DNA of 64,000 nucleotides from Patescibacteria group bacterium (GCA_038062015.1 JBBTXZ010000002.1:1266-65265), one strand, 5' to 3'; positions 36,425 through 61,247 are shown, counted from the stretch's first letter. Made by a program: numbers and translations. The notes: generated from the letters alone by a model not told the origin.

Positions 36425-36466
36425 AACTAATCTATCATTTTATTAACTTTTTATCAAAGAGGTTTT

Positions 36467-36531
36467 ACTCCCACACTCATCCCAAATACTCAAATTTAAG
36501 TAGTGGGGGCTTTCATGTATGAGTGTGGGGG
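36467..36531. repeat. GC-rich palindromic mini-element, copy A (arms actcccacactcat / atgagtgtggggg)
   Basis: inverted repeat read directly; right arm encodes the last residues NPHTHT* of gene 36513..37778; same termini as copies at 46046 and 61146. Confidence 0.55.
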
Positions 36532-37778
36532 TTTACCAAATCAAGACCGTTTTTAAAACCTAAAAGGCCGGTTAAAATAAATAACGGCTCAACCACAAAG
36601 CGCAATCCGGCTGAACTAACTGCACCGCTTAAAGCCGCAAAATAAAAAATCAGCAAAGCAAAAAATAAAATCAGTTCTTTATCTTGAGAATTTCTTCTAA
36701 AAAACGAGGATAAATAAAAAATCATCCCGGCAAAAATAACAAAAAGAGAGATTCTTTCAATCAAAATCAAACTAAATTCGTCTTGTTCTAGCCAGTACCT
36801 TATTCCATCCCGAACAAAGAATTTAAACCCTAAAATGCCTCTTGTGGCTAAAAGCCCAAGCGGCGACTCAAAAAAAACTTCTTTGGCTCTTTGTTTTAAA
36901 ATATCAGAATGAAAATAAGTGAAATATTCATCGAAAGATACAATTTGAGTTTGCTCGTTCATTTTATTCTCTAAAAATTCTCGGGCTTGAGCAAAAGAAA
37001 GATCATGATTAAAAGAATAAACTGCCGGGGCATCGTAAAAATACAGCTGATATGGACCAATTGAGGATAATGAAAATTCTCCAAAAAGACGGTAATTTCT
37101 TATCATCCACGGCAAAAGAATCAAAAAGAAAATAAAAATTAGCCCGAAAGATTTGTAAAGAAATAACTTCTTATTTAAAAACCTTTGGTTGTAAAAAAAT
37201 GAAATCAAAAATGGAATATAAATAAAAACTGCTATTGGCCTGATTAAAGCCAAAACCGGCAATAAAAACGAAACATATAAAAAGAACTTGTTTTGATTAG
37301 TTTTTAAAAACAAAACCCAGAACCAAACTGCAAGCATCAATGTAAAAAGAAAAAGCGGCTGGGTAAGAAACTGCAAAGAAACCTGCAAAGAAAAAGGCAT
37401 AAAAAGAAAAATTGCGGCGGCCAGCTCCCCTATTCTTTTCTTACCCGATATTTCGGCTAGCAAAAATAAAATGTAAGCCGAAGCAACAACCAGAATTGAC
37501 TGGACAACTAATGCGGCCAGATAATTCCCAAAAATGGCCTTATGTAAAAACAAAAAGAAAGGATATCCGGGAGTACGGAAAGAATTTGGTACGAATGGCT
37601 CATCGGCCTCCCAAGAGAAAATTTTATTTACCCTCATATTTTCGGCTAACTGGACATAGCCAAAAGAATCATCATCGTAAAAAAACTCCTGACTATCTAA
37701 AAAATTGAAAAACAGGAAAAGCCTCGCCAATAAACCGGCTAGAAGAATTAAATAAATTACTTTTCTGTTCTGATTCAT
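36513..37778 (-). CDS. GT-C glycosyltransferase of the ArnT/PMT (GT39/GT83-like) family
   Basis: N-terminal TM bundle with an acidic loop (FFYDDDSFGY) and RTPGYPFFLFL; 421 aa polytopic. Confidence 0.55.
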   Translation of the reverse strand: MNQNRKVIYLILLAGLLARLFLFFNFLDSQEFFYDDDSFGYVQLAENMRVNKIFSWEADEPFVPNSFRTPGYPFFLFLHKAIFGNYLAALVVQSILVVASAYILFLLAEISGKKRIGELAAAIFLFMPFSLQVSLQFLTQPLFLFTLMLAVWFWVLFLKTNQNKFFLYVSFLLPVLALIRPIAVFIYIPFLISFFYNQRFLNKKLFLYKSFGLIFIFFLILLPWMIRNYRLFGEFSLSSIGPYQLYFYDAPAVYSFNHDLSFAQAREFLENKMNEQTQIVSFDEYFTYFHSDILKQRAKEVFFESPLGLLATRGILGFKFFVRDGIRYWLEQDEFSLILIERISLFVIFAGMIFYLSSFFRRNSQDKELILFFALLIFYFAALSGAVSSAGLRFVVEPLFILTGLLGFKNGLDLVNPHTHT

Positions 37779-37779
37779 T

Positions 37780-38913
37780 TTAACCTACAAAATCTAGAAT
37801 TTTTTTTGCTCTATTCTCCCAAGTATGATTCTTAACTTTTTCAAAAGCTCTACTACTGATAGATCGGCCTAAATTTTCATTATTAAGAATATTTTTAATG
37901 CTTTCAGCTAATTGACTCGAATCGCCTGACTCAAAAAATACCGCACTATTTTCATCTAAAACTTCTCTAAGGGATGGCAAATCAGAAGCAATAATCGGCC
38001 GACCAGAAGCCATATACTCAAAAAGTTTTAAAGGCGAGGTATATAATTCGGATATTTTTTCTTCTTTTTTGTTAGGTAAAACTAAAGCGTCAGCGGCTTT
38101 CAAATAAAAAGGAATATCGCGGTAAGGCTTATGACCTAAAAATAAAATATTCTTTGCCTGATGTTCTTTAATTAAAACTTTAGAATCTTTTATATCTTTA
38201 TCAGTTCCTCCTATAAAAACAAAAAGAAATTCTTTAAGGATTAAGGCTGCTTCAATTAAAGTGTCTACACCCTTCCATTTAAACAAATGGCCAGAGTACG
38301 CCACTATTTTTTTATCCAAGGGAAGATTTAGTTTTTTTCTAGCTTCAGTTTTTGATACATTGATATCGAAATCTTTTAAATCAACAGCATCAAAAGCAAC
38401 CAAAATATTATTGGAATCAAAGCCGATTTTTTGAAATTCATTTTTAATGCCATTGGAAATAGCGATTATTTTTATTTTTCTGTTTTTAAACCTTTTATAT
38501 AAAAAAATCCTCTTTTTTGAAAATTTATGGACTTCAAAAAATAAATTTTCCCTAAAAAAACTCAAAAGATAAAGAGGCAGTTCGTCGCGGGAATAAATTA
38601 TATTGGCTTCATGACTCAAAGCATAAATCGCTAGAATAAAAGCTGAAATTAAATGTTTAATTTGAAAAGCAATCTGATCGAGACGACCAGGCAGATAAAA
38701 ATCCAAAGAAAAAATCTTTTTAAACTCAAAATTTTCTTTTACACCGTAGTATCTAAAAAAGTTTTCTTTTATTTTGCTGATTCGATACGGAGCAACTAAA
38801 CGAACTTTCATTCCGGCATCGCTAAAAACCTCACACATCTTAGAAATCTGTATCCCATAAGCTTTTTCAGTCGGCAGACGGTGATTGGCAAGGTATAGAA
38901 TCTTCAACGTCAA
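37780..38913 (-). CDS. GT4-family glycosyltransferase
   Basis: ELYTSPLKLFEYMASGRPIIASDLPSLREVL. Confidence 0.8.
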   Translation of the reverse strand: MTLKILYLANHRLPTEKAYGIQISKMCEVFSDAGMKVRLVAPYRISKIKENFFRYYGVKENFEFKKIFSLDFYLPGRLDQIAFQIKHLISAFILAIYALSHEANIIYSRDELPLYLLSFFRENLFFEVHKFSKKRIFLYKRFKNRKIKIIAISNGIKNEFQKIGFDSNNILVAFDAVDLKDFDINVSKTEARKKLNLPLDKKIVAYSGHLFKWKGVDTLIEAALILKEFLFVFIGGTDKDIKDSKVLIKEHQAKNILFLGHKPYRDIPFYLKAADALVLPNKKEEKISELYTSPLKLFEYMASGRPIIASDLPSLREVLDENSAVFFESGDSSQLAESIKNILNNENLGRSISSRAFEKVKNHTWENRAKKILDFVG

Positions 38914-38923
38914 TTTCTCTAAA

Positions 38924-39880
38924 TTATTTATTTGTGCTGACTAATCGACCGTCTTGATTAATTGATTTTTCTGCGGCCTCTAAAATTTCAACTACGGCAA
39001 TCCCCTCTTTGACCCCCGTTTTTGGCTTTTCTTTTAATCTAATATTTCTAAAAAACGACCTAAGTTCTAAAGTAAGCGGCGCGCCTTGATCGTATGAAGG
39101 ATGGATTATTTCAGGTTCTTTTCGCAATACCTCTGTTATATTTTTATTTTTCTTAAGCGCCGGGCCCATATTTTCATAAAGAGTGAGCTTCTGTTCTGCC
39201 GTATCATCAAAAATAATACTGCTTTTCTGCCCTATTATTGTGAGCCGTTTTCTTTTTTCAGGGAAAAGCCAGGAATTAAAAATGAAGCCCGCTGTTCCAT
39301 TAGAAAAACTAAGTTTTATATAGACAGTATCGTGAAGTTTTGTATTTGACCGCAGGGACGAAACACCCCAGGCCTGAACAGAAATCGGCCTGCTATCTAT
39401 AAGATCAAGCATCATGGCAATATCATGCGGCGCCCAGTCCCACATTGCCGATATATCGTTGCGATAAGGCCCGTTACTGGATCCCTCGCCGTATAGAAAA
39501 CGAACAGGCCCAATTTTTTTGACCAGTTCTTTTACCTTTTTGTAAGCCGGATTATAAAGATGGATGTGTCCGACAAAAACCAAACTCCAGCTTTTTTGGG
39601 CGGCTGCCTCAAGCCGTTTTGCGTCAGCAAGATTCGTGGTCATTGGTTTTTCAATAAAAACCGGCAGGCCTTGCTTTATAAAAGGCAGAGCAACCCGGGC
39701 GTGGGTGGAGGCCGGAGTAGCGACAATGATCGCATCAATATCTTTCTTTAGAATGAGTTTCTGGTAATTATGAGTTTCAATATAAGCCAAAACTGCCTCT
39801 GGCAGTTTTTCAAGCGCTGCAATGATTTTTTGACCCCATAGCCCTTTTCCTATGACAGCGGTTCTGTATGATTTTTTCAT
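38924..39880 (-). CDS. Gfo/Idh/MocA-family NAD(P)-dependent sugar oxidoreductase
   Basis: Rossmann start MKKSYRTAVIGKGLWGQKIIAAL; start moved to the internal Met to remove a 43-bp overlap. Confidence 0.65.
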   Translation of the reverse strand: MKKSYRTAVIGKGLWGQKIIAALEKLPEAVLAYIETHNYQKLILKKDIDAIIVATPASTHARVALPFIKQGLPVFIEKPMTTNLADAKRLEAAAQKSWSLVFVGHIHLYNPAYKKVKELVKKIGPVRFLYGEGSSNGPYRNDISAMWDWAPHDIAMMLDLIDSRPISVQAWGVSSLRSNTKLHDTVYIKLSFSNGTAGFIFNSWLFPEKRKRLTIIGQKSSIIFDDTAEQKLTLYENMGPALKKNKNITEVLRKEPEIIHPSYDQGAPLTLELRSFFRNIRLKEKPKTGVKEGIAVVEILEAAEKSINQDGRLVSTNK

Positions 39881-39900
39881 AGTGCGGCAAAGATTATAAA

Positions 39901-40980
39901 CTAAATAACGCCGGCCAGATAGTGCGGGTCGTTTCTGCACCACGATATAAATCGTGAGATGCCTTCTTGAAGAGAGGTTTGAGGCACAAAATTAAGATGT
40001 TCTTTCGCTTTTGAAATATCAGGACAGCGCCGCATCGGTTCGCCAGCCGGATAACTTTCGGGATAAGGAATTAAATTGTATGACGCGCCGTTGCCTTCCA
40101 GTGATACTACTAATTGAGCAAGATCCTTCATTGAAATTTCATTTGCGTCGTTGCCGATATTGTAGGCCTCGCCCGCTTGACCTTTTGCAAGAACTCTAAG
40201 AAAGCCATCGATAGCATCGGTAATATAACAAAATGTGCGCGTCTGGAGTCCATCGCCGTGCACGGGTATAGGTTTTCTATTTAAAACCATATAAGTGAAC
40301 ATAGGCAGTACCCGGCGATCATTATGAGACATACCCGGGCCAAACACATTAAATGGGCGCACGATTTTTGTCGGCAAGCCAAACTGTTCATTATAAATTA
40401 TAGCCAGGGTCTCGCCTAATCGTTTTGATTCGTCATAACAAGCGCGGGGACCGACAGAAGAAACAAACCCGTGGTATGTTTCAGGCGTCGGAACTGCGGC
40501 TGGATCCGGATCGCCGTAAATTTCGCTGGAGCTGAAAAAAAGAAACCCTTCTAGATTTTTATTTTTTCGTCCAAGATCGAGCAGATTTTTCGCCCCGGAA
40601 ACGGCGCTCTCAATAGTTTCGAGAGGATATTTCTTATAATAAACCGGCGAAGCAAGCCCGGCGGCGTGAATTATATAATGAATGTCTTCCCGCACCGGCA
40701 AAGGATGTATAACATCAGCCCAGACTTCAAGAACATCGGACCGGTCTCGATAGTTAAAATGAGGGTGGCGCTGACCGGTAATATAATTATCAGCTGAAAT
40801 TATCCGGCAAGGCCGGGAAAATACAGTATCGTTCAAATCGCATAAAGCGCCTACGATATATTTACCCAAAAAACCGGCGCCGCCGCTGATTAAAATAGTT
40901 TTGCCTTCAAAATTTTTTGCCGTTTCGCCTAATTTTTTGGTAATAGCGGCTATATCTTCTCTAACTATCTCCTCGTACAT
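39901..40980 (-). CDS. NAD-dependent NDP-sugar epimerase/dehydratase (extended SDR; UDP-glucuronate decarboxylase-like)
   Basis: GKTILISGGAGFLGKYIV; catalytic YDESKRLGE (YxxxK). Confidence 0.75.
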   Translation of the reverse strand: MYEEIVREDIAAITKKLGETAKNFEGKTILISGGAGFLGKYIVGALCDLNDTVFSRPCRIISADNYITGQRHPHFNYRDRSDVLEVWADVIHPLPVREDIHYIIHAAGLASPVYYKKYPLETIESAVSGAKNLLDLGRKNKNLEGFLFFSSSEIYGDPDPAAVPTPETYHGFVSSVGPRACYDESKRLGETLAIIYNEQFGLPTKIVRPFNVFGPGMSHNDRRVLPMFTYMVLNRKPIPVHGDGLQTRTFCYITDAIDGFLRVLAKGQAGEAYNIGNDANEISMKDLAQLVVSLEGNGASYNLIPYPESYPAGEPMRRCPDISKAKEHLNFVPQTSLQEGISRFISWCRNDPHYLAGVI

Positions 40981-40993
40981 AGAATTTATATTA

Positions 40994-42175
40994 TCACACT
41001 ACTTCTCTCGGTGGAATAGGGATTAAGTATCTATAAGAATTATTTGTTTTTTTCTTTATATCATCTAAGTACTCATAAGCAAACACCACTAAAATATCAG
41101 GCTTATGTTCATCTAAATAAGTTTTAGGAACAATCGGGATATGAGTTCCGGGGCTAAAACGATTCTGCTTCAGGGGACTGTCATCAATAATAAACTCAAT
41201 GAGCGACGAATCTATATTCCCGTAATTACAAATAGTGGCGACCCGGGCTGGCGCGCTATAACCGGCCACCTTGAGGCCGGCTTTTTTATATTCATTTAAT
41301 TTTTCACGAAAAGCAGAAATGTAAGAGTAAACTTTTTGTTTAAAGTCTTCTAATTTCAAACTATTTAAAGTAGTTTCTTCTTCGTCAAGAAGATTTTTAA
41401 CGGCGTCTGATATTAAGAAATCTGATCCGTTTTTACGGACAAAAATCCTGAGAGAACCGCCGTGAGGCTCTATTTTTTCCACATCAGATATATACATACC
41501 ATGTCCAGCAAATAATTTTGAAAGTGAAGTCAGCGAATAGTAAAATATTCTGTCCAAATAAAATCTTTCAAATTGAATATCAACTAAAATATTACCGATG
41601 TACTCGACCTCCAGTATAAAAACACCATCATCAGCCATAACTTTTTTTATATCTTCAATAAACTGATGAGGATTCTCTACATGAGTAAAAATACTGCTTG
41701 CCACGACTATGTCCGGACTTTCAAAATCTTTTTTTATCTTTTCTGACGTTTCCGAGTTAAAAAACGAAGTCAGCGTTGTTAATCCATAATCATTGGCTAT
41801 TTTTGAAACATTAATAGATGGATCAACGCCAACAGCTTTTACTCCTAATTGTTTTAAAGGTTTTAATAGTATACCGTCATTAGAACCGACATCAACCACA
41901 AACCGGGCCGAAATAAGCTTCTTGGCTAAATCTTCGAAATGCCTTACCAAACCGGGATTCACTGAAGAAAGATAATAATAATCTTCAAACATCCTTTCGC
42001 GGGAAATCATTTTCCCAAGCTGAACATTTTTGCAGTTTTTACAGAAAAATATCTGAAGCGGAAAAAAATCTTCTGTCTCAAAATTCTCTTTCTTGGGATA
42101 CTTATTCGCCAAAGGCTGACTCCCGAGATCAAGAAACAAAAAAATGTCCGAATGATTGCACAAATGGCATTTCAT
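40994..42175 (-). CDS. NDP-hexose C-methyltransferase (TylC3/NovU-like; Zn-ribbon + SAM MTase + C-MT C-domain)
   Basis: N-terminal Cys pairs CHLC...CKNC; SAM motif VVDVGSNDGILLKPL; about 390 aa as in sugar 3-C-methyltransferases. Confidence 0.6.
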   Translation of the reverse strand: MKCHLCNHSDIFLFLDLGSQPLANKYPKKENFETEDFFPLQIFFCKNCKNVQLGKMISRERMFEDYYYLSSVNPGLVRHFEDLAKKLISARFVVDVGSNDGILLKPLKQLGVKAVGVDPSINVSKIANDYGLTTLTSFFNSETSEKIKKDFESPDIVVASSIFTHVENPHQFIEDIKKVMADDGVFILEVEYIGNILVDIQFERFYLDRIFYYSLTSLSKLFAGHGMYISDVEKIEPHGGSLRIFVRKNGSDFLISDAVKNLLDEEETTLNSLKLEDFKQKVYSYISAFREKLNEYKKAGLKVAGYSAPARVATICNYGNIDSSLIEFIIDDSPLKQNRFSPGTHIPIVPKTYLDEHKPDILVVFAYEYLDDIKKKTNNSYRYLIPIPPREVV

Positions 42176-42196
42176 AGTAAGAATAATATCTTCGTT

Positions 42197-42724
42197 TTAG
42201 GGACTTTTCAAGGGGATATTATTAACAATTTCCCATTGATCAACGGCCCCAAAAGCCCGGCAAAGACAGATTGAGTTAACTGTAAAGCTTAGGGATTTAA
42301 TCGTTGAAGAATTAAATAAACGTATAGCTTTGTCTTTTAAACTATCACTGATACTCCCATATACCACACTCATATGGGGATTATAAGCATACTTTTTGTT
42401 AAAAAGTTTTTGAGCAAGATTATTTGTCCCCATAAGTCCTTTTGATTTTCTGCATCTCAAAAAAATAGATTTGTAAAATTCGTATGACTTAACCGGATTT
42501 ATAAAGGTAATCTTGAAAGGAGCAGTTTCCCGGGCGATTTGCTTCATTATCTTTATTATCTTTTCGGGTTTAAACTTAACGTCATTAATCAAAGTTACAT
42601 GGGGCTTAAAAGAAATAGTGTTGGTTTGTTTATTTACATTATTTAAAAAACCGGCCATAAATTCCAGTTTTTTATTATCAGGAACCAACCATAAAGAATA
42701 TTCTTTTAATGAATTATCCTTCAT
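42197..42724 (-). CDS. 2H phosphoesterase (LigT/cyclic phosphodiesterase-like)
   Basis: two H-x-[TS]-x motifs (HVTL and HMSV) about 80 aa apart; 175 aa. Confidence 0.5.
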   Translation of the reverse strand: MKDNSLKEYSLWLVPDNKKLEFMAGFLNNVNKQTNTISFKPHVTLINDVKFKPEKIIKIMKQIARETAPFKITFINPVKSYEFYKSIFLRCRKSKGLMGTNNLAQKLFNKKYAYNPHMSVVYGSISDSLKDKAIRLFNSSTIKSLSFTVNSICLCRAFGAVDQWEIVNNIPLKSP

Positions 42725-43566: not shown

Positions 43567-43584
43567 AGTCTTAATAAATTACAC

Positions 43585-43616
43585 TAATTTTATTAAAAAA
43601 GGAAGCGGGACGATTG
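43585..43616 (-). terminator. rho-independent terminator after the GC-rich two-gene island
   Basis: minus-strand agcgggac-aatc-gtcccgct hairpin followed by tccttttttaat. Confidence 0.45.
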
Positions 43617-43639
43617 TCCCGCTTCTAGCGAAAGGTTCT

Positions 43640-44017: not shown

Positions 44018-44028
44018 GACTTCCTCCT

Positions 44029-44859: not shown

Positions 44860-44924
44860 TTCAGTCCAGTCGGCGTAAAAGACTTGTCAGTAAAGTACAC
44901 GATGATGCTTATTTTGTCAATGTC

Positions 44925-46181
44925 TTACTTTTTCAAACTATGGAAAAAATCCCAGAGTTTTTGGGCCACTGATTCGTGGCTAAAGTTGGCAATCATAAAT
45001 TCACGGGCCGCTTTACCTAGGCGCTCACGCAAATTTTTATCTTTTCCTAATTTTAACATCGGATCATAAACACCCTGAACATCATAAGGCGGTCCAACCA
45101 AAAAACCTGTTTCGCCGTCTTTAACCACTTCGTCCATAGAACCGGAACGGGTAGTTATAACCGGGAGCTCCATTAAAGACGCTTCCATCGTGGCGTAGCC
45201 TAATTGGTCTTCCCAACCTTTGTGAGGTAAACTGGGATAAACAAAGACGTCAGTTACCGAAAGCAATTCTCTCATTTCCTCATGGTCGATCCACGGAAAC
45301 CGATAGATTCGTTCTCTGAATTGAGAACCATTTATAAGCCCGTTAATCTCTTTTTCATAATCATCTTCACCCGTACCGACAATATACAAAACTGCATTTG
45401 GTATTTCTTTTGCCAAATTATTAAATGCCTTGATAATCAAATGAATGCCTTTTCTAAAACTGATTGAACCGACAAAAGAATAAACGATTTTACCCTCAAG
45501 GTTTTGACCGCGAAACTTTTTTGGAATATTTAATTTTTTGAAAAAATGACCGTTCACACCGCTGGCTGGAATCAAGGGATGGAGCCGCCCGGGAATGAAA
45601 CTATCAATTATCTTCCGGGCTTTCTGATTCCCGCAAATAACCCCGTCGCTGAATAAAAGACTAAATTTCAAAATAAAAAGTTTTATCCGGCCGCGCAATC
45701 CAAAAAGTTTTTCCCGATAATGTATGTTTTCCCAGGTCAAACAAAAGAATTTCGCGCCGTATAGTTTAGTCCAAATTAACTGCCAGGTAGTTGATAAAAG
45801 AGGCGGCTCGCTGCAGGCAAAGACAATGTCAATTTTTTTCTTAAATCCTAAACGCCACAGCCAAAACGGAAAAAACGGCGTTAAGCCTTTTAAAAGCCCG
45901 CCGATCAAAAAATAGTTAGAGTGGTAAAACCAAGTTCGCGCTCCAAAGACATTTTTCTTTTCCGGCGTCCGGTAAACAACTTTTCCACCTTTAATAGGCC
46001 ATTTTGAAGGCAGTAAAAAATAAAGCTCATCGCCATCGGGACTAGCCCCCACACTCATCGAGCGATTACCGCTTTGCGGTCCAGTTTTTAAACTTTCGCT
46101 CGTATGAGTGTGGGGGTAAAAATCAAAAACCTCTAAAATATTCTTTCTAACATAAGGGAAACCAGTAATAAGTATCTTCAT
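44925..46181 (-). CDS. GT4-family glycosyltransferase carrying an in-frame palindromic-element insertion near the N-terminus
   Basis: N-terminus MKILITGFPYV; C-terminal HKGWEDQLGYATMEASLMELPVITT; residues YPHTHTSESLKTGPQSGNRSMSVGASPDG are encoded by element copy B. Confidence 0.65.
   Translation of the reverse strand: MKILITGFPYVRKNILEVFDFYPHTHTSESLKTGPQSGNRSMSVGASPDGDELYFLLPSKWPIKGGKVVYRTPEKKNVFGARTWFYHSNYFLIGGLLKGLTPFFPFWLWRLGFKKKIDIVFACSEPPLLSTTWQLIWTKLYGAKFFCLTWENIHYREKLFGLRGRIKLFILKFSLLFSDGVICGNQKARKIIDSFIPGRLHPLIPASGVNGHFFKKLNIPKKFRGQNLEGKIVYSFVGSISFRKGIHLIIKAFNNLAKEIPNAVLYIVGTGEDDYEKEINGLINGSQFRERIYRFPWIDHEEMRELLSVTDVFVYPSLPHKGWEDQLGYATMEASLMELPVITTRSGSMDEVVKDGETGFLVGPPYDVQGVYDPMLKLGKDKNLRERLGKAAREFMIANFSHESVAQKLWDFFHSLKK
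46046..46117. repeat. GC-rich palindromic mini-element, copy B (19-nt arms cccccacactcatcgagcg / cgctcgtatgagtgtggggg) inside a GT4 gene
   Basis: inverted repeat with 1 indel and an internal accgc-ttt-gcggt hairpin; translated in-frame on the minus strand. Confidence 0.55.
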
Positions 46182-46852: not shown

Positions 46853-46899
46853 TATTTAAACATCTTGCAAAATCTTGAAAAAATCGTTATTTTAATTTA

Positions 46900-47934: not shown

Positions 47935-47944
47935 GTATTTTCAA

Positions 47945-47989: not shown

Positions 47990-48010
47990 CGCTTGCGAAA
48001 GAACTAAGGG

Positions 48011-50086: not shown

Positions 50087-50088
50087 AT

Positions 50089-51054: not shown

Positions 51055-51055
51055 G

Positions 51056-55022: not shown

Positions 55023-56086
55023 TATAGTAACTCTGAAATTTTTCTTACTGTATCAGATAAATTGTGATTTTTAATGACTGATTCTTCCAAATAATCAATA
55101 ATATGCTTTGTTTTTTGTTCTGGCAAATTCAATAAATTCTGGATCTTTTCAGCTAAATCTCCGGCGGCGCCGTGTTTAAAAATCAAAAATCGGTTAAAAT
55201 CGCCAAAGTATCTTTTAAATATTTCATTGGCGACTAAAGTCAAAGAACCCGCTGCCATCGCCTCAAGAACAACTTTATCAATACCGCCTTTTGGAGCAAG
55301 ATTTACAAAAATATCGGCTTCTTTATAGTAACCGGCGATGCCGCTATAAGGAATAAAGCCGGTAAATTCGATGGAGCCTTCCAATTCCAAATCTTTGACC
55401 ATTTTTTTTAATTCATCGAAATATTCTATATCGTAATCCATTATTGGACGTCCAATTATATTAACCTTAAACGTTAGTCCATTGTCTTTTAAAATTTTTA
55501 CTGCCTTAATTAAGGTTTCGTAATTTTTAATTCTTGATATCCGGCCAACGCTTAAAATTCTGACCTCCCTAGAGTTTAAGTTATCTTGTTTCCTTTCGGT
55601 TTTAAATTTTTGAACATCAATCCCGTGTCCTACTTCAATTATTTTCTTGCTTTTGATATTCAAACTTTCAGCGGTTGAAGTTACGATTTTATAACAGAGT
55701 TTCTCGGCCAGTTTAAGGCGCCTTGTAACTGAACGGTGCAAATACCAAAGGACAATTCTTTTTCTAAAAATTGTGGCGACCGGCCAAGACAAAACCGCAA
55801 AAATCGGAGACATATGAATAAAAACCCCATCTGATTTCGGAATTAATCTAAATAAATACCAATAAAACTTTATGAACATTTTGATCTTTGAACTTCGAAA
55901 CTCTTTGCCCAATGAATAAATAAATACATTTTTAGGCAAATTATGACTTCCTTGTCCCAAAGTTATGACAAAAACTCTATCAAAATTATTGGCAAACTCT
56001 TTAAGCCACGAAACAAAAAAACCCAAAAGATCGTCATCCTGGTCAACTTTCTGGGTAATTATCAAAAGATTTTCCATTTTGTCCAC
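55022..56086 (-). CDS. GT4-family glycosyltransferase
   Basis: GGIDKVVLEAMAAGSLTLVANE. Confidence 0.7.
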   Translation of the reverse strand: MDKMENLLIITQKVDQDDDLLGFFVSWLKEFANNFDRVFVITLGQGSHNLPKNVFIYSLGKEFRSSKIKMFIKFYWYLFRLIPKSDGVFIHMSPIFAVLSWPVATIFRKRIVLWYLHRSVTRRLKLAEKLCYKIVTSTAESLNIKSKKIIEVGHGIDVQKFKTERKQDNLNSREVRILSVGRISRIKNYETLIKAVKILKDNGLTFKVNIIGRPIMDYDIEYFDELKKMVKDLELEGSIEFTGFIPYSGIAGYYKEADIFVNLAPKGGIDKVVLEAMAAGSLTLVANEIFKRYFGDFNRFLIFKHGAAGDLAEKIQNLLNLPEQKTKHIIDYLEESVIKNHNLSDTVRKISELL

Positions 56087-56123
56087 TCTTGAATTAAATT
56101 ACATATGTAAGATAACTCAAGAA

Positions 56124-57839
56124 TCATTTGCTAAAAGTAAAAGTATAAAAACTATCCAATTCTTTAAACTCTCCTCTTAAAATCTTCAAAGCTGATTCAT
56201 CTTTTACATCAGGGCCGAAGAAATCATAGATTGTCTGACTGGCCTCTTCAAAATGTCGATTTTTCGCCTGAATCAAGGCATAAAAAATAACATTGCCTTT
56301 CCCGCCGTATTCGAAAACTAAAATTTTAAGCGTTTCTTCGGCTTCCGGATATTTTTTCCTAGTGAAATAAACCCGGCTTAGATTCTGTAAAGTGTTTTGG
56401 TGCTTCGGTCTTAATTCAAGGACCCGTTCCAAAAATTTTTCCGCTTCGGCATAATCGCCTTCCTGAACTTCAACCGCCCCTCTAAGATTCAGATTTTGAA
56501 TATAATCGGGATATTTTTCATAAACCTCCAGAGATAACTTTTTGGCTAATTCTTTATCCTGATTAAGAATCAAGATTCCATAATTAGTCTTAGCCGCGAC
56601 GCTATTGGGCGACTTCTTAAAACTGTCGGTTAAAAGAGCTTCGCGGTTGGCCCAGACACGGTTCTGGCTGACAGTTATAAAACCATAAACAACCGATAAA
56701 ATCAATAAAATGGCTAAACCTAACCGCTTTGACAACTTGAATAACTGCTCGATGAATACAGCTAAAATCATCAACGCGCCCAAAGAAGGGAAATACATCA
56801 GCCGTTCAGCCATTATTGTTCCGGTCGGAAAAATCAGATTTGAAATTACAAGATAAGGAAGGAAAAAAAATATAAAGAGCCAACCTAAAACCGAACTCTT
56901 TTTTCGCGTTAGAATCTTGTAACCCTCCCAAAACATCAATCCTAAAAAAACGAGGCCCAATAATGAAAGTGGCGAAGAAAATAAGTTCGTTACTATCGAA
57001 ATCTGGTCATAAGAATAATCAGCCGAAAGATTGTAAGGCACAAAAACTTTTTGAAGATAAAGAACTAAAATTTTTAAAGCCGTAAAAATCCGTTCAAAAA
57101 AAGAAGCATAAGCCAGAGGATTAAAAACAAATTCAACCTGCGATTTGAAGGCGTATTGACCCAGAACAGCGATCCGAAGAATAAAATAAAAAATCATCGC
57201 TGCAAAATAATAAATCGGCCACCGCCAGCCCCGGTGATAATATAAGTTGAACAGAAAAATAATAGCCAGTACCATTATCACACTTTCCTTATTTAAAAAA
57301 GCTAAAAACAAAACTATAGCCGAGAGAAAATACTTTGAATCAAACCACAAAAGCAAAGTTAAAATTCCGAAAAAAAGCGAAAGCAGTTCGGTCCGGCCGC
57401 TAATTGCCGTCACGGCCTCAACGTGAATTGGCAAGACCAAGAATAATAAAGAAGCAATCAAACTGAGACGGCTATTGCTAGTCAACTTTTTCAAAAGTAA
57501 ATAAACCAAAAATGAGTTAATAATATGCAACAAAACATTGACCAGATGAAAACCGAACGGCGAAGAGCCGATTAAAAAATTAAGGCCGAAGCTGATTTGA
57601 ACCAAGGGCCGGTAAAGTCCGGCTTGGTAAAAATCTTCGAAATACGGCTGGCTGAAAAAAGAAAATATTTTGCTTGGCTGACCGAAAAGACTGTGCGATA
57701 AAATTAAATGATCATCATGGACAAATTCACCGTTCAGACCATTAGAAAAGACGGAAGAACCGATCAATAAAAAAAGAATGAAAACAGCCTTATTTGACTT
57801 CATAAGTAAAACTTTATCTAAAAACAAAAAACGGCGCAA
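56124..57839 (-). CDS. TMTC-like GT-C membrane glycosyltransferase with C-terminal TPR repeats
   Basis: N-terminal FVHDDH acidic motif in the first loop; about 11 TM helices; C-terminal TPR repeats (AEAEKFLERVLELRPKHQNTLQNLSRVYF...). Confidence 0.5.
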   Translation of the reverse strand: MRRFLFLDKVLLMKSNKAVFILFLLIGSSVFSNGLNGEFVHDDHLILSHSLFGQPSKIFSFFSQPYFEDFYQAGLYRPLVQISFGLNFLIGSSPFGFHLVNVLLHIINSFLVYLLLKKLTSNSRLSLIASLLFLVLPIHVEAVTAISGRTELLSLFFGILTLLLWFDSKYFLSAIVLFLAFLNKESVIMVLAIIFLFNLYYHRGWRWPIYYFAAMIFYFILRIAVLGQYAFKSQVEFVFNPLAYASFFERIFTALKILVLYLQKVFVPYNLSADYSYDQISIVTNLFSSPLSLLGLVFLGLMFWEGYKILTRKKSSVLGWLFIFFFLPYLVISNLIFPTGTIMAERLMYFPSLGALMILAVFIEQLFKLSKRLGLAILLILSVVYGFITVSQNRVWANREALLTDSFKKSPNSVAAKTNYGILILNQDKELAKKLSLEVYEKYPDYIQNLNLRGAVEVQEGDYAEAEKFLERVLELRPKHQNTLQNLSRVYFTRKKYPEAEETLKILVFEYGGKGNVIFYALIQAKNRHFEEASQTIYDFFGPDVKDESALKILRGEFKELDSFYTFTFSK

Positions 57840-57868
57840 TTACGGCCATTTTTCGTTTAAAAATCAAA

Positions 57869-58951
57869 TTATTTATTTATTAGCTTAAGATACTTGGCTT
57901 TGGATAAAGGTCCAAAGTAGCCGCTAGCCGGCGATATGTTGTTAGCTTTCTGCCAAGCGGCTACGGCCGCTTGAGTCACTGCTCCGAAACGACCAGTTGA
58001 ACCACCAGAATAAGTAAAATGCCCTGTAGTAGTCAGATAATCCTGCAAAGCCTTAACATCCGCGCCTTGAGAACCGACTGTCAGACTGCGGGTAAAATTA
58101 AAAGCAGCACCAAGAGCTTGAGGCGTCTGAACCGGAGTGGCCACCGGAACAGAAACAGAAGTAATTTTTGCCCTTGTTAACGGCCCAAAATAACCGCTCG
58201 CCGGGGGAACACCGTTAGCCACCTGCCATTTTGCCAAAGCCGTTTTGGTCAAAGAACCGAATAAATTGGTTTCACTACCCGGGGAACCGGGTCCGGAATT
58301 AGCAATTTTAAAACCTGCGGAGTTAAGGAATTTCTGCAAACTTTTAACGTCTTCTCCACTGGAACCAATAGTCAGGTTTCTGACAAATTGGGAAACTGAA
58401 GCTGGGCCTGATAATCCGGCTATCTTTGCCTGTAAGGCCGATATTTGAGAAGTTATCGCTTCTGCGCCTGCGGCCGGAGTTGGGGTCGGACTTGGAGTTG
58501 CTGAAGAAGTTGAGGAATCACTTCCGCCGCCAGTTCCGCCTCCGCCGCCTCCTCCACCACCACCACCAGTAAGAGTGGAACAACCGGACGAACTTGGTGT
58601 CACTTTTATCGTTCTCTGTCCGGAACCAGAAGGCAAGGTAATTGATATTTCAGAATAGGTGCTGGGGCAATTCTGACTAAGGCCGCCATCATTAGTCAAA
58701 ATTTTCCGGTCCGTTGATCTTAAAGTAAATGTCTGCCCTCCTGAAATTTTAAAGGTAAGAGTGGAGGTCTCGGTGCTTATTTCATCAGCGCTTGAACCGC
58801 CAATAATCGTAAAATTAGTAGATGATCCACCTATGGTTAGATTAATCGTGGTATCTTCCGGAAAAGTAAGGGCTGCGGCTGAGACTACGCCCGGAATTAA
58901 AAATAATGAAAGAACTAAAAAGAGATATGATTTTTTAATTAGTTTTTTCAT
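57869..58951 (-). CDS. secreted protein with Gly/Ser/Thr/Pro linker and two peptidoglycan-binding (PG_binding_1-like) domains
   Basis: signal peptide ...GVVSAAA; poly-Gly run; two repeats of the ...GxDVKxLQxxL...GYFGPLTxAK pattern. Confidence 0.65.
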   Translation of the reverse strand: MKKLIKKSYLFLVLSLFLIPGVVSAAALTFPEDTTINLTIGGSSTNFTIIGGSSADEISTETSTLTFKISGGQTFTLRSTDRKILTNDGGLSQNCPSTYSEISITLPSGSGQRTIKVTPSSSGCSTLTGGGGGGGGGGGTGGGSDSSTSSATPSPTPTPAAGAEAITSQISALQAKIAGLSGPASVSQFVRNLTIGSSGEDVKSLQKFLNSAGFKIANSGPGSPGSETNLFGSLTKTALAKWQVANGVPPASGYFGPLTRAKITSVSVPVATPVQTPQALGAAFNFTRSLTVGSQGADVKALQDYLTTTGHFTYSGGSTGRFGAVTQAAVAAWQKANNISPASGYFGPLSKAKYLKLINK

Positions 58952-59370
58952 TGTTTAAGTTTCGAATTGATAATCGTTTGGACTACTTGCGAATCCGGTT
59001 TTAAATTCTCCCAAAAAAGAATGTGATCTCGGTTAAGAATCATTTGATTCTTGGGGCTATGGGGTTCTGTTTCGCCCAATCTCACTAATCTACCGGAAGC
59101 AGAGCCCTCGCTTTCCAACTTAACATAATATACGTCCTCCAAAATCGGGTATTGCGAATCAATATCTCTTAATCTACCAAAATATATTTGCTTGTCATCA
59201 AGGAAAATCGCCTGATAAGTTGTTTGATCAATCCTCTCTTCTTCTCCGGCGCCTTTTAACAGCAACCAATATGCTTTAAAGCCCAAAACGAAAATCAATA
59301 ACAGCCCGACTATTACAGCCAGTCCCGTTAAAATTGGAGAAGATTGATTCTTTTTTAATAGCCACGCCAT
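58948..59370 (-). CDS. hypothetical membrane-anchored protein
   Basis: 140 aa with N-terminal TM LTGLAVIVGLLLIFVLGF; 4-bp overlap with the downstream gene. Confidence 0.4.
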   Translation of the reverse strand: MAWLLKKNQSSPILTGLAVIVGLLLIFVLGFKAYWLLLKGAGEEERIDQTTYQAIFLDDKQIYFGRLRDIDSQYPILEDVYYVKLESEGSASGRLVRLGETEPHSPKNQMILNRDHILFWENLKPDSQVVQTIINSKLKQ

Positions 59371-59388
59371 TAAAACATCCGCTATAAC

Positions 59389-61035
59389 CTATCTGCAATC
59401 AGTCGTGTTTATAGTTAAAGTTGACCCGAAAAGCCTTAGATACTGAACCGTGCCAGCGGTGTTTGTCATGACAAGACAAACGCCCTTGGTAGTCGAGCTT
59501 GTTTCGAAAATGATACTCGTCGTGGCGGTTGAAACCTCGCCGACATTTAAGTTAGTCCCGACAGAAGCCGTGCCGCCAACCTCAAATATCGTATCCTGAT
59601 ATCCGGTGGTGCCCACCCGAGCTGCCCTTGTAACAGTCAGGTCGCCTTTAAACGAGTGGGAAGCAGCAGTATCAGCAATAAATCTGCCTGAAATCTGAAG
59701 GTTGGAAGAAATAGATGCCTTTGAGTCAAAAAAGGCATTTGAATCCACTTCAAGCAAACCCGTGACAAGAAGGTCGTTGGCTGCTGCTAAGGAGCGGGTG
59801 GTGGCGCCAGTACCAAATCTTGAGTATGCCACAGAGGCGTTGCCGGCAAACTGGGCCGCATTCTGAGAAAAGAAATAAGCGGCCGAGGCGGTAGCGTCAA
59901 AGTAAGTTCTATTTTGATGTTCAGTAAAACCGGTTATCAGCAAATCATTACTTGCTGATAGGCCGTGATTAGTCGTATCGGTGCCGAGTCGGGAATATGC
60001 CACTGACGCATTGCCGGCGAACTGAACAGCACCCGAAATCATCAAATTGGTTGCCGAGGCCGTGCCGCCGACTTCAAATTTGGTATCCAAATCAGTACCA
60101 GGGCTCACTCCCACTCTGGTGTTGCTTGTATCAATAATTAATATGTTGGTTGTCCCGGCTGTATTCTGGAATCTAAAGGCGGTGGCAGAATTGGAATTTG
60201 GCCTGAAACGGCCGTCATTCATTGTAAATACGCCTGAAACAGAAGCAGTGCCGCCGAAAGAAACCGAACCTCTAATTTCAACATCGCCCGAAACCAGAAG
60301 GTCATTGGATGCTGAAATATAATTGGCATGATTGGTGGTAGTGGTGCCGAAACGGGAATAGGCCACGGAGGCATTGCCGGCGACCTGCAAGGTATTGCCG
60401 GTTAAGAGGTAAGAAGCAGAGGCGGTGCCTTGAATTTCAGCCCGGTCATCCACTGTTAAGACACCATCAGCAGTGATTAAACCAATCCCGGTTAAGGCGC
60501 CAGTTGAAGAGATATCCCAGTCTGAAGTATTAACCTCCCCAGTATCACCATTATCTCCGAAGACGAATCTGCCCCCAGTCTGAAAGTTGCCAGAGATTGA
60601 AGCTTTACCGTCTAAGAAAGCATTACCATCTACTTCTAAGGCCCCGGAGATTAGAAGATCATTAGAAGCATCAAGGTCTGATGAGTAGCCAGTGGTAGCA
60701 GTGCCGAAACGAGAGTAAGCCACTGACGCATTGCCGGCGAACTGAACAGCACCCGAAATCATCAAGTTGGTTGCCGAGGCCGTGCCGCCGACTTCAAATT
60801 TGGTATCCAATGACCCGAAATTTACTCCCAATCTGGTACTGGTACCGTCAAAAACTAATAAATTAGTTCCTGATCCGTTTTGAAATCTTACTGCTGTCGC
60901 AGAACCACTATTAACCGTAAGAGTTCCGGTAGTGGACATATTGACGCCGATAGTTGAATCAGCCCAAGCTCCATTTATTAAAACAAAAGAAAACACCATC
61001 GACCCGACTGCGAGAAAAGAAATTAATTTTTTCAT
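59389..61035 (-). CDS. secreted repetitive (beta-helix-like) surface protein
   Basis: signal peptide ...INGAWA; four or more copies of ...GTASATNLMISGAVQFAGNASVAYSRFGT...; Gly/Ser/Thr/Asn/Ala-rich. Confidence 0.55.
   Translation of the reverse strand: MKKLISFLAVGSMVFSFVLINGAWADSTIGVNMSTTGTLTVNSGSATAVRFQNGSGTNLLVFDGTSTRLGVNFGSLDTKFEVGGTASATNLMISGAVQFAGNASVAYSRFGTATTGYSSDLDASNDLLISGALEVDGNAFLDGKASISGNFQTGGRFVFGDNGDTGEVNTSDWDISSTGALTGIGLITADGVLTVDDRAEIQGTASASYLLTGNTLQVAGNASVAYSRFGTTTTNHANYISASNDLLVSGDVEIRGSVSFGGTASVSGVFTMNDGRFRPNSNSATAFRFQNTAGTTNILIIDTSNTRVGVSPGTDLDTKFEVGGTASATNLMISGAVQFAGNASVAYSRLGTDTTNHGLSASNDLLITGFTEHQNRTYFDATASAAYFFSQNAAQFAGNASVAYSRFGTGATTRSLAAANDLLVTGLLEVDSNAFFDSKASISSNLQISGRFIADTAASHSFKGDLTVTRAARVGTTGYQDTIFEVGGTASVGTNLNVGEVSTATTSIIFETSSTTKGVCLVMTNTAGTVQYLRLFGSTLTINTTDCR
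60001..60090. repeat. 90-bp near-identical intragenic repeat, copy 1 (partner at 60721..60810)
   Basis: cactgacgcattgccggcgaactgaacagcacccgaaatcatcaaRttggttgccgaggccgtgccgccgacttcaaatttggtatccaa occurs twice with 1 mismatch. Confidence 0.7.
60721..60810. repeat. 90-bp intragenic repeat, copy 2
   Basis: see copy 1. Confidence 0.7.
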
Positions 61036-61145
61036 ACTAAAATTATAAAACTTATTACTAACAAAGACCTGTGGATAAATAATTATCCTTTAAAAGCATT
61101 ATATCAGGGAAAAAAACATTACACTGTGGATAACTTTAAAAGTAA

Positions 61146-61247
61146 ACCCCCACACCCTTACGGGTGTGGCATTGGCCGATACGCGCTTCGCGCGAACAGA
61201 AACCATTCATCCACGGGCTTACGCCCGTGGCATTCTGGGTGTGGGGG
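61146..61247. repeat. GC-rich palindromic element, copy C (intergenic; termini cccccacaccc...gggtgtggggg with nested hairpins)
   Basis: outer inverted repeat plus nested hairpins cacaccc-ttac-gggtgtg, cgcgc-ttc-gcgcg and ccacgggc-ttac-gcccgtgg; same TA-CCCCCACAC termini as copies A and B. Confidence 0.5.

Follow-up and report, generated by a model that had tools for sequence, protein, structure and literature searches.

The window, by which we mean the entire 64,000-nucleotide (64-kb) stretch of patescibacterial DNA analysed here, contains three short elements, A, B and C, lying in or beside genes for glycosyltransferases and a repetitive surface protein, with all the genes near the elements being on the minus strand. 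The features are:

36464..36467, no strand: left target-site duplication of A, TTTA; a single TAAA (coding strand) stands at this site in a relative (L128)
36468..36531, no strand: element copy A, 64 bp, 47% GC; left arm CTCCCACACTCAT (one mismatch), right arm ATGAGTGTGGGGG
36532..36535, no strand: right target-site duplication of A, TTTA, matching the left one; single TAAA in L128
36513..37778, minus strand: PMT_2 (GT-C, ArnT-like) glycosyltransferase ORF, 421 aa, PF13231; its NPHTHT* lies in the right arm of A
44925..46181, minus strand: GT4 glycosyltransferase gene hosting B, 418 aa; close homologues have 391-395 aa
46042..46116, minus strand: insertion at B, 75 bp (25 codons), element B plus CTAG (46042-46045); translation PHTHTSESLKTGPQSGNRSMSVGAS
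46046..46116, no strand: element copy B, 71 bp, 54% GC; perfect 13-bp arms CCCCCACACTCAT/ATGAGTGTGGGGG, 20-bp extended stem
46117..46120, no strand: TAAA flank of B, which reads TTTA on the coding strand and is the target tetranucleotide; the empty sites have a single copy
59389..61035, minus strand: repetitive surface-protein gene downstream of C; start codon 111 nt from C
61143..61146, no strand: left target-site duplication of C, TAAA; only one TAAA in the empty site of L275
61147..61247, no strand: element copy C, 101 bp, 63% GC; arms CCCCCACACCC/GGGTGTGGGGG, three internal sub-hairpins
61248..61251, no strand: right target-site duplication of C, TAAA, pairing with the left one; single in L275
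61253..62377, minus strand: GT4 gene adjoining C; stop codon 5 nt upstream of C (gene direction), frame unaltered by the insertion

The three copies share terminal inverted repeats of 11-13 bp, CCCCCACAC[TC]C…G[AG]GTGTGGGGG, as an earlier note on this DNA had observed, and are GC-richer than the window as a whole (38.7% GC). They are spaced 10-15 kb apart, not in arrays, and every copy folds into a long hairpin (z −4.7 to −10). The motif CCCACACYC occurs six times in the window, as three inward-facing pairs, against 0.27 occurrences expected; none of 100 shuffles contained six or more, and the paired terminus pattern had no match in any of them. These counts do not agree with the likeness being limited to a short word expected by chance, which the earlier note had allowed for.

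Empty sites in related contigs

As judged from the aligned sequences, copies A, B and C are real insertions with precise empty sites in related contigs, and they are polymorphic for presence and absence between related genomes (A against L128, B against L128 and L125, C against L275). No element copies were found in approximately 40 kb of close relatives (L125-L128). Copy B had been described as lying wholly within a GT4 gene and being read through in frame; it indeed constitutes codons 23-47 of the 418-aa ORF, which reads ...FDFY PHTHTSESLKTGPQSGNRSMSVGAS PDGDE.... In protein alignments the 25-residue insert, with its PHTHT segment, is missing from all 16 aligned GT4 homologues, including those that are 84-87% identical, and the corresponding DNA of two relatives (L128 and L125) is shorter by exactly 75 bp, i.e., the 71 bp of the element and 4 more. 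The flanks of B do not match, one being CTAG and the other TAAA (read as TTTA on the coding strand), yet the insertion still has the length of the element plus 4. In an AlphaFold model of this GT4 protein (pLDDT 83.8, pTM 0.83), the confidence drops below 50 only at the inserted residues 25-48 and in the segment 86-100; accordingly modelled, the insert is predicted to form a disordered loop joining helix 1 to strand 2 of the enzyme.

The PMT_2 ORF ends, with ...LVNPHTHT*, inside copy A, whose interior holds a decayed half-site (AGTAGTGGGGG); the last six codons and the stop of this ORF belong to the element. The earlier note had ascribed these six codons to the element, which is correct, but the change went further, since about nine ancestral C-terminal codons (TKNILIKTR*) were replaced: the relative ends in ...GFDLTKNILIKTR and the window protein in ...GLDLVNPHTHT. 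The empty site in L128 reads GATTTAAC-TAAA-AATA as against GATTTGG-TAAA-[element]-TAAA-ACCTC in the window. Copy C was rightly called intergenic, being located 5 nt past the GT4 stop and 111 nt before the start of the surface-protein gene. The promoter region of the latter is found between C and the start codon; it contains two TTATCCACA boxes and has been conserved in a relative that has no C. In the empty site of L275 the sequence is GATTTAAGTTTGTTTTTAAAGTTATCCACAG, as opposed to GATTTAACTTTA[101 bp]TTTACTTTTAAAGTTATCCACAG in the window, giving an insertion of 105 bp.

The family, its duplications and its target

A metagenome scan with exact 11+11-nt termini recovered 106 further loci, a count that, like the conservation and length statistics, is biased by the choice of matches with perfect termini and in which subfamily members are not independent of each other. 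These loci come mainly from low-GC groundwater contigs (mostly 34-50% GC, many from the same aquifer), with named-genome occurrences in Candidatus Yanofskybacteria (L053) and Candidatus Saccharibacteria (L093); the family is widespread among the tiny-genome groundwater Patescibacteria (CPR). Besides the three copies in the window, at least three occur on one 53.6-kb contig (L165, L179). Interiors are unrelated between copies, leaving the symmetric terminal helix as the sole conserved part. Copy B belongs to a subfamily also found at four other loci (L172, L155, L206 and L223), in the extended stem of which pairing is preserved via two compensatory changes, while copy C represents a variant-terminus subfamily of the CACACC type with a like terminus at L144 638-761. 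The smallest copy (L164) is a 28-bp perfect palindrome made of the two termini, flanked by TTCA on both sides, and given this minimal copy the functional unit seems to amount to just the two 12-bp ends. Decayed copies are also present in the family.

Perfect 4-bp direct repeats abut the termini in 41 of the 88 unique copies, against a chance level of about 0.5% (p ~1e-69); they are absent in the remaining 47. The flanks had earlier been given as TA or TAAA: TAAA holds for C, but the unit of repetition is a 4-bp direct repeat and not TA, with TTTA on both sides of A and the CTAG/TAAA pair at B. Across the 41 copies the target has T at 40/41, T at 40/41, B (T19 G15 C7 A0), A at 39/41 and then Y at 35/41, i.e., TT[T/G/C]A, with TTAA seen 0 times. 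A non-palindromic TTBA target that is never TTAA is not what one would usually expect of a DDE transpososome with two-fold symmetry. Related copies have differing duplications (TTTA, TTGA and TTCA within one subfamily) and face either way with respect to the target, the interiors of about 11 pairs having the same orientation with respect to TTBA and those of 10 the opposite one.

We consider it probable that the three loci belong to a non-autonomous, MITE-like DNA transposon family of Patescibacteria (CPR) that is moved in trans. An improbable alternative is that they are REP/REPIN- or IS200/IS605-like, that is, single-stranded DNA hairpins moved by a Y1 HUH transposase (RAYT/TnpA), in which case the flanking tetranucleotides would not be duplications but the sites of cleavage and targeting. 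In its favour, the hairpin stems are strongly conserved, the asymmetric TTBA target recalls IS608-type targeting, some copies are lodged in the loop of a tRNA gene or of another hairpin, and no DDE transposase was found. However, flanks that are identical in 41 of 88 copies and yet vary inside one subfamily point to target duplication, and the mixed polarity conflicts with the fixed polarity of IS200/IS605-type insertion. Further, the conserved part is strictly terminal and never subterminal, copies occur inside genes, unlike REPs, and no RAYT-like gene was seen between paired copies (e.g., at L165); in the fetched loci no protein family was seen to recur near the elements.

The same data bear on a chance likeness confined to a short GC-rich word, to which we assign practically no probability. 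The 9+9 specified bases do match randomly in many unrelated, mostly high-GC genomes, and a few high-GC metagenome matches (L130, L152, L205, L208), as well as the viral ones, are probably unrelated to the family. Against this stand the excess of invariably inward-facing pairs in the window and the interiors common to B and copies in other genomes, and chance similarity is ruled out by the precise empty sites of all three copies and the target duplications.

Coding insertions and tRNA-carrying members

The termini leave two of the three frames open (PPHS…ECG or PHT(H)…SVG), with the third meeting a TGA. Every insertion found in an ORF keeps the frame and is stop-free, which agrees with the proposal of the earlier note that in-frame coding insertion is tolerated, as illustrated by GT4, lepA and dnaE. 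For instance, by comparison with solved structures, a LepA/EF4 protein (L233) has a 22-residue insert, SPHS…NECGD; at the start codon of dnaE there are in-frame extensions of 21-22 codons (L155, L223); and a Pyr_redox_2 gene likewise carries an insert (L202). Among the candidates checked, no gene had its reading frame broken by an element. Insertion lengths are divisible by three in 23 of 42 duplication-bearing insertions (p = 0.0034), a bias that is expected of translated DNA insertions and not of RNA that is processed out. As read from the frame, the inserted peptides would be made and tolerated.

Four related loci have an intact tRNA gene between the termini, nested in turn within another tRNA gene that has the same anticodon and is disrupted; the window has no such members. 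These are:

L135, L144: tRNA-Pro(CGG) cassette in the anticodon loop of the resident tRNA
L154: tRNA-Gln(CTG) cassette in the T-loop of the resident tRNA
L227: tRNA-Val(TAC) cassette in the D-loop of the resident tRNA

The tRNA-Pro junction, TTCG/element/CAAG-GGT, is identical in two genomes whose neighbouring CCA-adding enzymes are merely 50% identical, and four closer relatives (71-85% identical) have a single intact gene at this site. The interrupted outer tRNAs have decayed: that of L135 shows C1>T and has lost 1 nt, and that of L144 has several extra insertions. Such members might conceivably act as tRNA replacement cassettes, a doubtful reading at present, in which the resident gene is destroyed and a working copy of the same anticodon supplied within the 12-bp ends. 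The tRNA-Pro case suggests either site-specific insertion or horizontal spread of the cassette with the tRNA halves as homology arms. Replacement of this kind, if true, would be a behaviour previously undescribed for a MITE-like element, and spread by homology arms, if true, would amount to a homing-like, addictive persistence of a tiny element in streamlined genomes.

These contexts also raise an intron-like explanation, whereby the hairpin is excised from the RNA and the interrupted genes and tRNAs stay functional. Essential genes (lepA, dnaE) and tRNA genes are interrupted, deletion of the element with 4 nt gives the exact ancestral sequence, and Patescibacteria are rich in introns, some of them group I introns located in tRNA genes (PMC13011429). 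Nevertheless, we regard it as extremely improbable: in-frame, stop-free ORF insertions and an enrichment of multiples of three would be needless if the RNA were spliced out, and no out-of-frame gene split is among the candidates checked. Ribozyme or bulge-helix-bulge features and Rfam matches are lacking, and the outer tRNAs at L135 and L144 are decaying around an intact replacement.

Selection at each site for a functional RNA or DNA hairpin, such as a terminator, mRNA stabiliser or processing stem, would dispense with transposition altogether. Its attractions are the very stable folding; the setting of C, which on the transcribed strand ends with a hairpin and GGGGGUUUACUUUU after the operon and has a terminator-like score; the identical termini at orthologous positions in diverged genomes (the dnaE start at L155/L223/L206 and the tRNA-Pro locus at L135/L144); and the four loci at which termini bracket tRNA genes in the fashion of a processing stem. 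We hold it to be highly improbable, since the empty sites of close relatives attest recent gain of the entire unit plus 4 bp, copies inside coding sequence are read through, orientation relative to upstream genes is unbiased (13 versus 8), the interiors are unrelated and decayed copies exist; the conservation of the termini is itself partly an artefact of a search requiring them to be perfect. Moreover, Rfam 15 models matched no part of the window at gathering scores, nor any part of 36000-62000 when E was relaxed to 5, and in 20 related loci they matched only tRNAs. Hence, the structured RNA motif that the earlier note had thought equally likely is disfavoured by the lack of Rfam matches, the unrelated interiors, the inconsistent orientation of the copies relative to genes and the bias of lengths towards multiples of three.

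Putative mechanism and comparison with known systems

In the MITE-like reading, the mobile unit consists of 12-13 bp terminal inverted repeats, (C)CCCCACACTCA … TGAGTGTGGGG(G), with the CACACC variant in C, around a spacer of 4 to ~80 bp, the whole usually being a long imperfect hairpin. A transposase coded elsewhere would bind both ends, and the element would enter TT[T/G/C]A by 4-bp staggered cuts, with gap repair duplicating the tetranucleotide on both sides. The likeliest enzyme class would be a DDE-type transposase. Neither the window nor ~0.8 Mb of fetched loci yielded a transposase or autonomous copy bearing these termini, and the collection scans covered closely spaced ends; mobilisation in trans and the class of enzyme are thus inferred. 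The length of an element plus 4 bp is frequently divisible by three, and, given the open frames and such lengths, copies in tolerant parts of genes may persist as translated peptide insertions. Copies may also survive as new C-termini, as A in the PMT_2 enzyme, while C is a plain intergenic insertion between the end of an operon and the next promoter.

Several known systems invite comparison. Integron attC sites (RYYYAAC…GTTRRRY) were rejected, as the termini differ, the copies lie 10-15 kb apart and the scanned window ORFs include no integrase. With REP/REPIN-RAYT and IS200/IS605 palindromes the elements share the form of short, GC-rich, dispersed hairpins with an adjacent asymmetric tetranucleotide; they differ in their sibling-variable duplications, the lack of fixed polarity, the intragenic copies and the strictly terminal conservation. 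Thus, they depart from REPs/REPINs, which have no duplication, are extragenic and carry a conserved 5' tetranucleotide. IS200/IS605 derivatives insert 3' of a set tetra- or pentanucleotide with fixed polarity and have subterminal hairpins but no terminal repeats; the mixed polarity, terminal repeats and duplication of the flank on both sides speak against such a derivation. The IS1380 family has ends beginning with CC and AT-rich duplications of 4-5 bp. The C-run termini and 4-bp AT-rich duplications of our elements are similar, a likeness of general description that serves as a lead only; an IS1380-type transposase or a full-length element with these ends was not found in the available data.

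Mobile insertion cassettes (MICs) possess terminal inverted repeats and passenger genes but no transposase. The tRNA-carrying members at L135, L144, L154 and L227, and these only, are likewise made of termini enclosing a passenger gene without a transposase; unlike in MICs, a term that appears in PMC5444012, the passenger here is one tRNA gene, carried by a ~100-bp cassette inside a loop of the resident tRNA gene with the same anticodon, and no MIC description of this sort was found.

The Rickettsia palindromic elements (RPEs), reportedly described by Ogata and colleagues in 2000, offer a parallel in behaviour. They are ~100-150 bp long and restricted to Rickettsia, and their definition does not rest on conserved short ends and a distinct 4-bp target duplication. 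Our elements are similarly palindromic selfish DNA of a reduced genome, repeatedly inserted in frame in unrelated, even essential genes (here GT4, LepA, DnaE and Pyr_redox_2), where they would be translated into additional stretches of peptide, likely in surface loops. Having termini unrelated in sequence to those of the RPEs (summarised in PMC10969869) and Patescibacteria rather than Rickettsia as hosts, they are not members of that family, and the likeness is behavioural.

The earlier proposal of a small mobile element is upheld by the empty sites and by the many further copies in related genomes; of its two parts, MITE- or REP-like, the first fits and the second does not, given the 4-bp duplications, the intragenic copies and the want of fixed polarity. 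Prokaryotic MITEs, such as Correia/NEMIS of Neisseria, RUP of Streptococcus pneumoniae and MITEAba12, have been reviewed (PMC10969869). From these the present family is set apart by its own termini, its patescibacterial hosts, the lack of an identified cognate IS, a minimal copy reduced to a palindrome of 28 bp, a TTBA target of 4 bp instead of, e.g., TA, and members that carry a whole tRNA gene. Hence, while the kind of element is already known, this particular family seems to be undescribed. Like other MITEs, its members are small (28-105 bp; 64, 71 and 101 bp in the window) and non-coding, without a transposase ORF, have shared terminal inverted repeats (in A, B, C and the 106 loci) and a target-site duplication of fixed 4-bp length (imperfect at B), may occur in several copies per genome, form hairpins, and lie both within and between genes with the potential for in-frame fusions.

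Three insertions in a surface-glycan locus

The GC-rich palindromes termed here copies A, B and C belong to one MITE-like element family with the terminus pair CCCCACAC…GTGTGGGG, and Pfam searches on the window's ORFs place them in a large surface-glycan locus. All genes neighbouring them are on the minus strand, and the GC content of the entire window is 38.7%.

Copies of the element in the window (neighbouring genes on the minus strand)
Copy A: 36468-36531, 64 bp, 47% GC, one mismatch in the left arm
Copy B: 46046-46116, 71 bp, 54% GC, perfect 13-bp arms CCCCCACACTCAT/ATGAGTGTGGGGG
Copy C: 61147-61247, 101 bp, 63% GC, arms CCCCCACACCC/GGGTGTGGGGG

The terminal inverted repeats that an earlier note had seen at these three loci are as described: the CCCACACYC 9-mer occurs six times in the window against 0.27 expected, every time in an inward-facing pair, and the paired terminus pattern was never recovered from shuffled sequence. 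Folding likewise predicts a long hairpin for each copy on either strand (z -4.7 to -10). HIP1 (GCGATCGC) shows no enrichment in the window, on which ground a cyanobacterial origin was rejected, and a search for tRNA-like or other weak RNA similarity in copies A-C found none.

Comparison with relatives established that all three copies are insertions. Copy B, as had been claimed, reads through in frame inside a GT4 glycosyltransferase gene of 418 codons; contigs that encode an identical protein include some from the Hainich aquifer, and its homologues bear the names Paceibacterota, Parcubacteria and Yanofskybacteria, which makes the source a member of the Patescibacteria (CPR). The closest GT4 homologues are 391-395 aa long and 75-87% identical in alignment, and exactly 25 residues, PHTHTSESLKTGPQSGNRSMSVGAS, are missing from 16/16 of those aligned, making the PHTHT-containing segment an insertion. 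In the DNA of two relatives (L128 and L125) the empty site reads GATT(T/C)TTA|(C/T)CC…, while the filled site in the window reads GATTTTTA[71-bp element + CTAG]TCC…, an insertion of 75 bp. Copy A overlaps the stop codon of a PMT_2 (GT-C) protein, and its proposed role as supplier of the C-terminus holds: the ancestral tail …GFDLTKNILIKTR has been displaced by …GLDLVNPHTHT, with a single TAAA in L128 against TAAA-element-TAAA in the window. Copy C is indeed intergenic: it lies 5 nt beyond the stop codon of a second GT4 gene, with 111 nt separating it from the start of the repetitive surface-protein gene downstream. Its empty site, GATTTAAGTTTGTTTTTAAAGTTATCCACAG, is found in L275, from a different organism of the same well with a GT4 70% identical; the window has GATTTAACTTTA[101 bp]TTTACTTTTAAAGTTATCCACAG, and the insertion is therefore the element plus TTTA, 105 bp. 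No copy is present in ~40 kb of non-redundant sequence from the relatives L125-L128.

Other features of the locus deserve mention in their own right. Upstream of the repetitive surface-protein gene, two perfect DnaA-box-like 9-mers (TTATCCACA; 61070-61078 and 61125-61133, minus strand) bracket a promoter of the TGATATAAT type; the window has three such 9-mers against 0.38 expected, the box-promoter-box arrangement is kept in L275 (5170-5235), which is without copy C, and the reverse complement (TGTGGATAA) is present in a further locus, L276. Two small ORFs of 72 and 64 aa (36005-36424, minus strand) between the PMT_2 and carbamoyltransferase genes probably encode real small proteins, because they retain ~82% DNA identity with L128. 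The window edge, where SecA/SecDF and Mur-ligase genes also lie, has a coupling-protein ATPase of the TrwB/VirD4 kind (PF10412) next to a protein with sigma-70 region 4 and HARE-HTH domains (335-1849 and 3173-4225, minus strand).

A dispersed family and its probable mode of movement

Further copies, for which a search of related genomes had been proposed, were recovered in number. A genome-collection scan with only 9+9 specified bases gave matches that, among those listed, were mostly chance occurrences in high-GC genomes, the only true members among them being L053 (Candidatus Yanofskybacteria) and L093 (Candidatus Saccharibacteria). A metagenome scan, requiring exact 11+11-nt termini (its hits are thus selected for perfect ends) and an inner gap of at most 81 nt, yielded 106 loci, mostly on contigs of 34-50% GC and many from the Hainich aquifer; the taxonomy of most is deduced from GC content, habitat and neighbouring genes, and a handful of high-GC hits are probably due to chance. 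Viral contigs were considered as carriers, and the 40 loci returned there by a 10+10 pattern were all unrelated C-rich repeats; the family is not evidently phage-borne.

Perfect 4-bp direct repeats abut the termini in 41/88 unique copies, against a chance rate of ~0.5% (p ~1e-69, with the copies of a subfamily not being independent). The 41 reconstructed targets conform to TTBA: T in 40/41, T in 40/41, B (T19 G15 C7 A0), A in 39/41 and then a pyrimidine in 35/41, with TTAA never observed among them. Copy lengths range from 28 to 105 bp, the latter being the ceiling of the scan. The smallest (L164 4451-4482), TTCA|CCCCCACACTCATGCATGAGTGTGGGGG|TTCA, is a 28-bp perfect palindrome made of both ends only, has the duplication, and is apparently the minimal mobile unit of the family. 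Element interiors vary widely from copy to copy; in the subfamily comprising copy B, L172, L155, L206 and L223, a 20-bp stem is preserved via two compensatory changes as the loop drifts. Decayed copies also occur, and the 52-bp members of one subfamily sit inside another palindromic repeat, in its loop.

The terminal repeats, the duplication, constant at 4 bp but varying between siblings, the empty sites and the ends-only minimal copy together point to movement by a transposase that acts on the element's ends with 4-bp staggered cuts. The element would thus be a non-autonomous DNA transposon mobilised in trans, by an enzyme that would recognise its 12-13 bp ends and cut the target with a 4-bp stagger. 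The class of this enzyme we can only infer, because no transposase was found in the window or near other copies: Pfam on the window ORFs gave none, the ORFs between two copies on one metagenome contig (L165) contained no transposase-like candidate, a search for an autonomous element via extra half-sites near other copies returned only decayed or neighbouring small copies, and all-against-all clustering of 1,064 neighbouring ORFs recovered only housekeeping synteny groups. The IS1380 family, with its CC ends and AT-rich duplications of 4-5 bp, may be a lead. A fixed insertion polarity was considered and rejected, as the orientation of the interiors relative to the asymmetric target is mixed. 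This argues against strand-specific insertion of the IS200/IS605 or RAYT type. Of the earlier MITE/REP-like assignment, the MITE half fits and the REP half does not, given the target duplications, the insertions within genes and the mixed polarity.

Certain sites depart from this pattern. CTAG at window 46042-46045 (copy B) and CAAG at L135 5160-5163 and L144 920-923 (a tRNA-Pro cassette) are exactly four added bases that are not target copies, opposite a TTTA or TTCG that resembles the target; these CWAG additions are the cases with a known ancestral site and no proper duplication. The 52-bp subfamily, with a TTGA duplication, sits in a different palindromic family (GTCATTCCCG…CGGGAATGAC) at L165 5150-5350 and 5930-6060 (contig Ga0209542_10001556, also L179), and since this composite recurs on many contigs, such genomes contain two or more families of hairpin repeats, nested one in another. 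Eight further loci (L149, L153, L156, L184, L189, L193, L199 and L212; e.g. L199 12417-12650) have the common flanks …ATTGAGCA | element | TAAGGTTT… in at least two gene neighbourhoods, with four unrelated interiors and without the duplication. Each flank lies within its own hairpin, one of which touches the ATG of the next gene; Rfam returned nothing for this structure, which may represent a composite repeat of larger size or else a leader of an uncharacterised kind.

Insertions in protein-coding and tRNA genes

The right arm TGAGTGTGGGGG has a TGA in one reading frame, and two frames are therefore open through both arms; read from the sequence, these are PPHS…ECG and PHT(H)…SVG. Copy B is read in the latter. 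In a LepA/EF4 gene (L233) a 22-residue insert, SPHS…NECGD, lies between conserved domains, as judged by comparison with solved EF4 structures. At the dnaE start codon of L155 (266-330) and L223 (13339-13409) the arrangement is ATGAA|element|TGAA and the protein is longer by 21-22 codons; in L206 (1294-1363) the element is upstream of dnaE with the start codon downstream of it. A further element lies in a Pyr_redox_2 gene (L202), and homology-backed coding insertions are limited to these four, in GT4 (copy B), LepA, DnaE and Pyr_redox_2. The dnaE PHP-domain codons CAC ACT CAC ('HTH') just downstream resemble the element's CACACTCA core, which may be a coincidence. In an AlphaFold model of the window GT4 that is confident overall (pLDDT 83.8, pTM 0.83), the insert (residues 25-48) is an unstructured loop between the helix 13-20 and the strand 52-58, its low confidence being expected since no homologue has the segment; confidence also falls below 50 at residues 86-100. 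As the arm ATGAGTGTGGGGG provides an in-frame ATG, ORF calls with elements near the N-terminus are unreliable.

Among duplication-bearing insertions 23/42 have a length that is a multiple of three (p = 0.0034, related copies not being independent), and no gene broken out of frame was found among the candidates checked. Both observations argue against excision of the element from RNA. Apparent split genes (L183, L157, L139) proved to be different genes, with adjacent ORFs ending or starting in elements. The suggestion of a structured motif reused at the RNA level likewise found no backing, with no Rfam match at the elements at E up to 5 and no significant bias in how the copies face the genes upstream of them (13 against 8), on which count a terminator function was also rejected. 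On its transcribed strand, copy C ends in a terminator-like hairpin with a U-rich tract, and might secondarily serve as a terminator at that site.

A distinct set of members carries an intact tRNA gene exactly between the termini and is itself inserted in a second, outer tRNA gene.

tRNA cassettes and their position in the outer tRNA gene
L135 5057-5159: tRNA-Pro(CGG), in the anticodon loop
L144 815-919: tRNA-Pro(CGG), in the anticodon loop
L154 2446-2550: tRNA-Gln(CTG), in the T-loop
L227 762-861: tRNA-Val(TAC), in the D-loop

In all four, the cassette splits a tRNA gene with the same anticodon as the inner tRNA, and one half of the disrupted gene flanks it on each side. They represent only three independent loci, and their count is what fits the 81-nt gap limit of the scan, which is exactly the size of the cassettes. 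The ancestral tRNA-Pro state is seen in four relatives of L135 (L277-L280), with, in this order, a tRNA-Arg, a CCA-adding enzyme gene and a single intact tRNA-Pro(CGG) without the element. Removal of the element and CAAG from the outer gene of L135 leaves an almost intact tRNA-Pro(CGG) in alignment; that of L144 has decayed further and has a second element in its D-loop, whose ends are of the CACACC type and whose duplication is TATA. Compared over the same C-terminal region, the CCA enzymes of L135 and L277 share 85% identity, and identity between L135 and L278-L280 is 71-74%; all four of these loci are empty. With the enzyme of L144 that of L135 shares only 50% identity. L135 and L144 have the same nested junctions while closer relatives are empty, which suggests either that the site was gained repeatedly by site-specific insertion or that the cassette spread horizontally, the tRNA halves serving as homology arms. 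Purifying selection on the termini had been hinted at by the dnaE and tRNA-Pro loci, and no such claim is possible since the hits were selected for perfect termini. Immediately after the intact tRNA-Pro(CGG), L278 (2899-3756), L279 (1858-2559) and L280 (2973-3755) each have an HNH_repeat (PF18780) gene, which L135 does not have at the corresponding place. Nested structures of the cassette kind go unmentioned in a recent survey of Patescibacteria tRNA introns (PMC13011429).

Implications and comparison with known systems

Mobile DNA is generally considered scarce in the very small genomes of Patescibacteria (CPR), and an apparently active, phylum-wide miniature transposon is unexpected in them. 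Judging from the sequences, the element would reshape glycosyltransferases, LepA and DnaE by giving them additional peptide loops or new termini; it offers an explanation for odd 20-25-residue inserts and changed C-termini in predicted CPR proteins. Annotators should treat start codons close to the ATGAGTGTGGGGG arm as possibly spurious. As a simple sequence tag, the termini could also be used to type strains and to detect empty or filled sites in population data. Should the tRNA cassettes prove to be regular behaviour, they would constitute a new selfish-element strategy and a source of error in the tRNA gene counts of these genomes.

Literature searches on the motif and on MITEs in CPR/Patescibacteria turned up neither these termini nor such MITEs, and the tRNA-carrying, tRNA-nested members, if systematic, would be a new form. 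Structurally the element is a MITE, and it does not match REP/REPINs, IS200/IS605 derivatives, attC sites or known RNA families. Its behaviour is like that of the Rickettsia palindromic elements, whose host genome is likewise reduced and which also insert in frame (PMC10969869).
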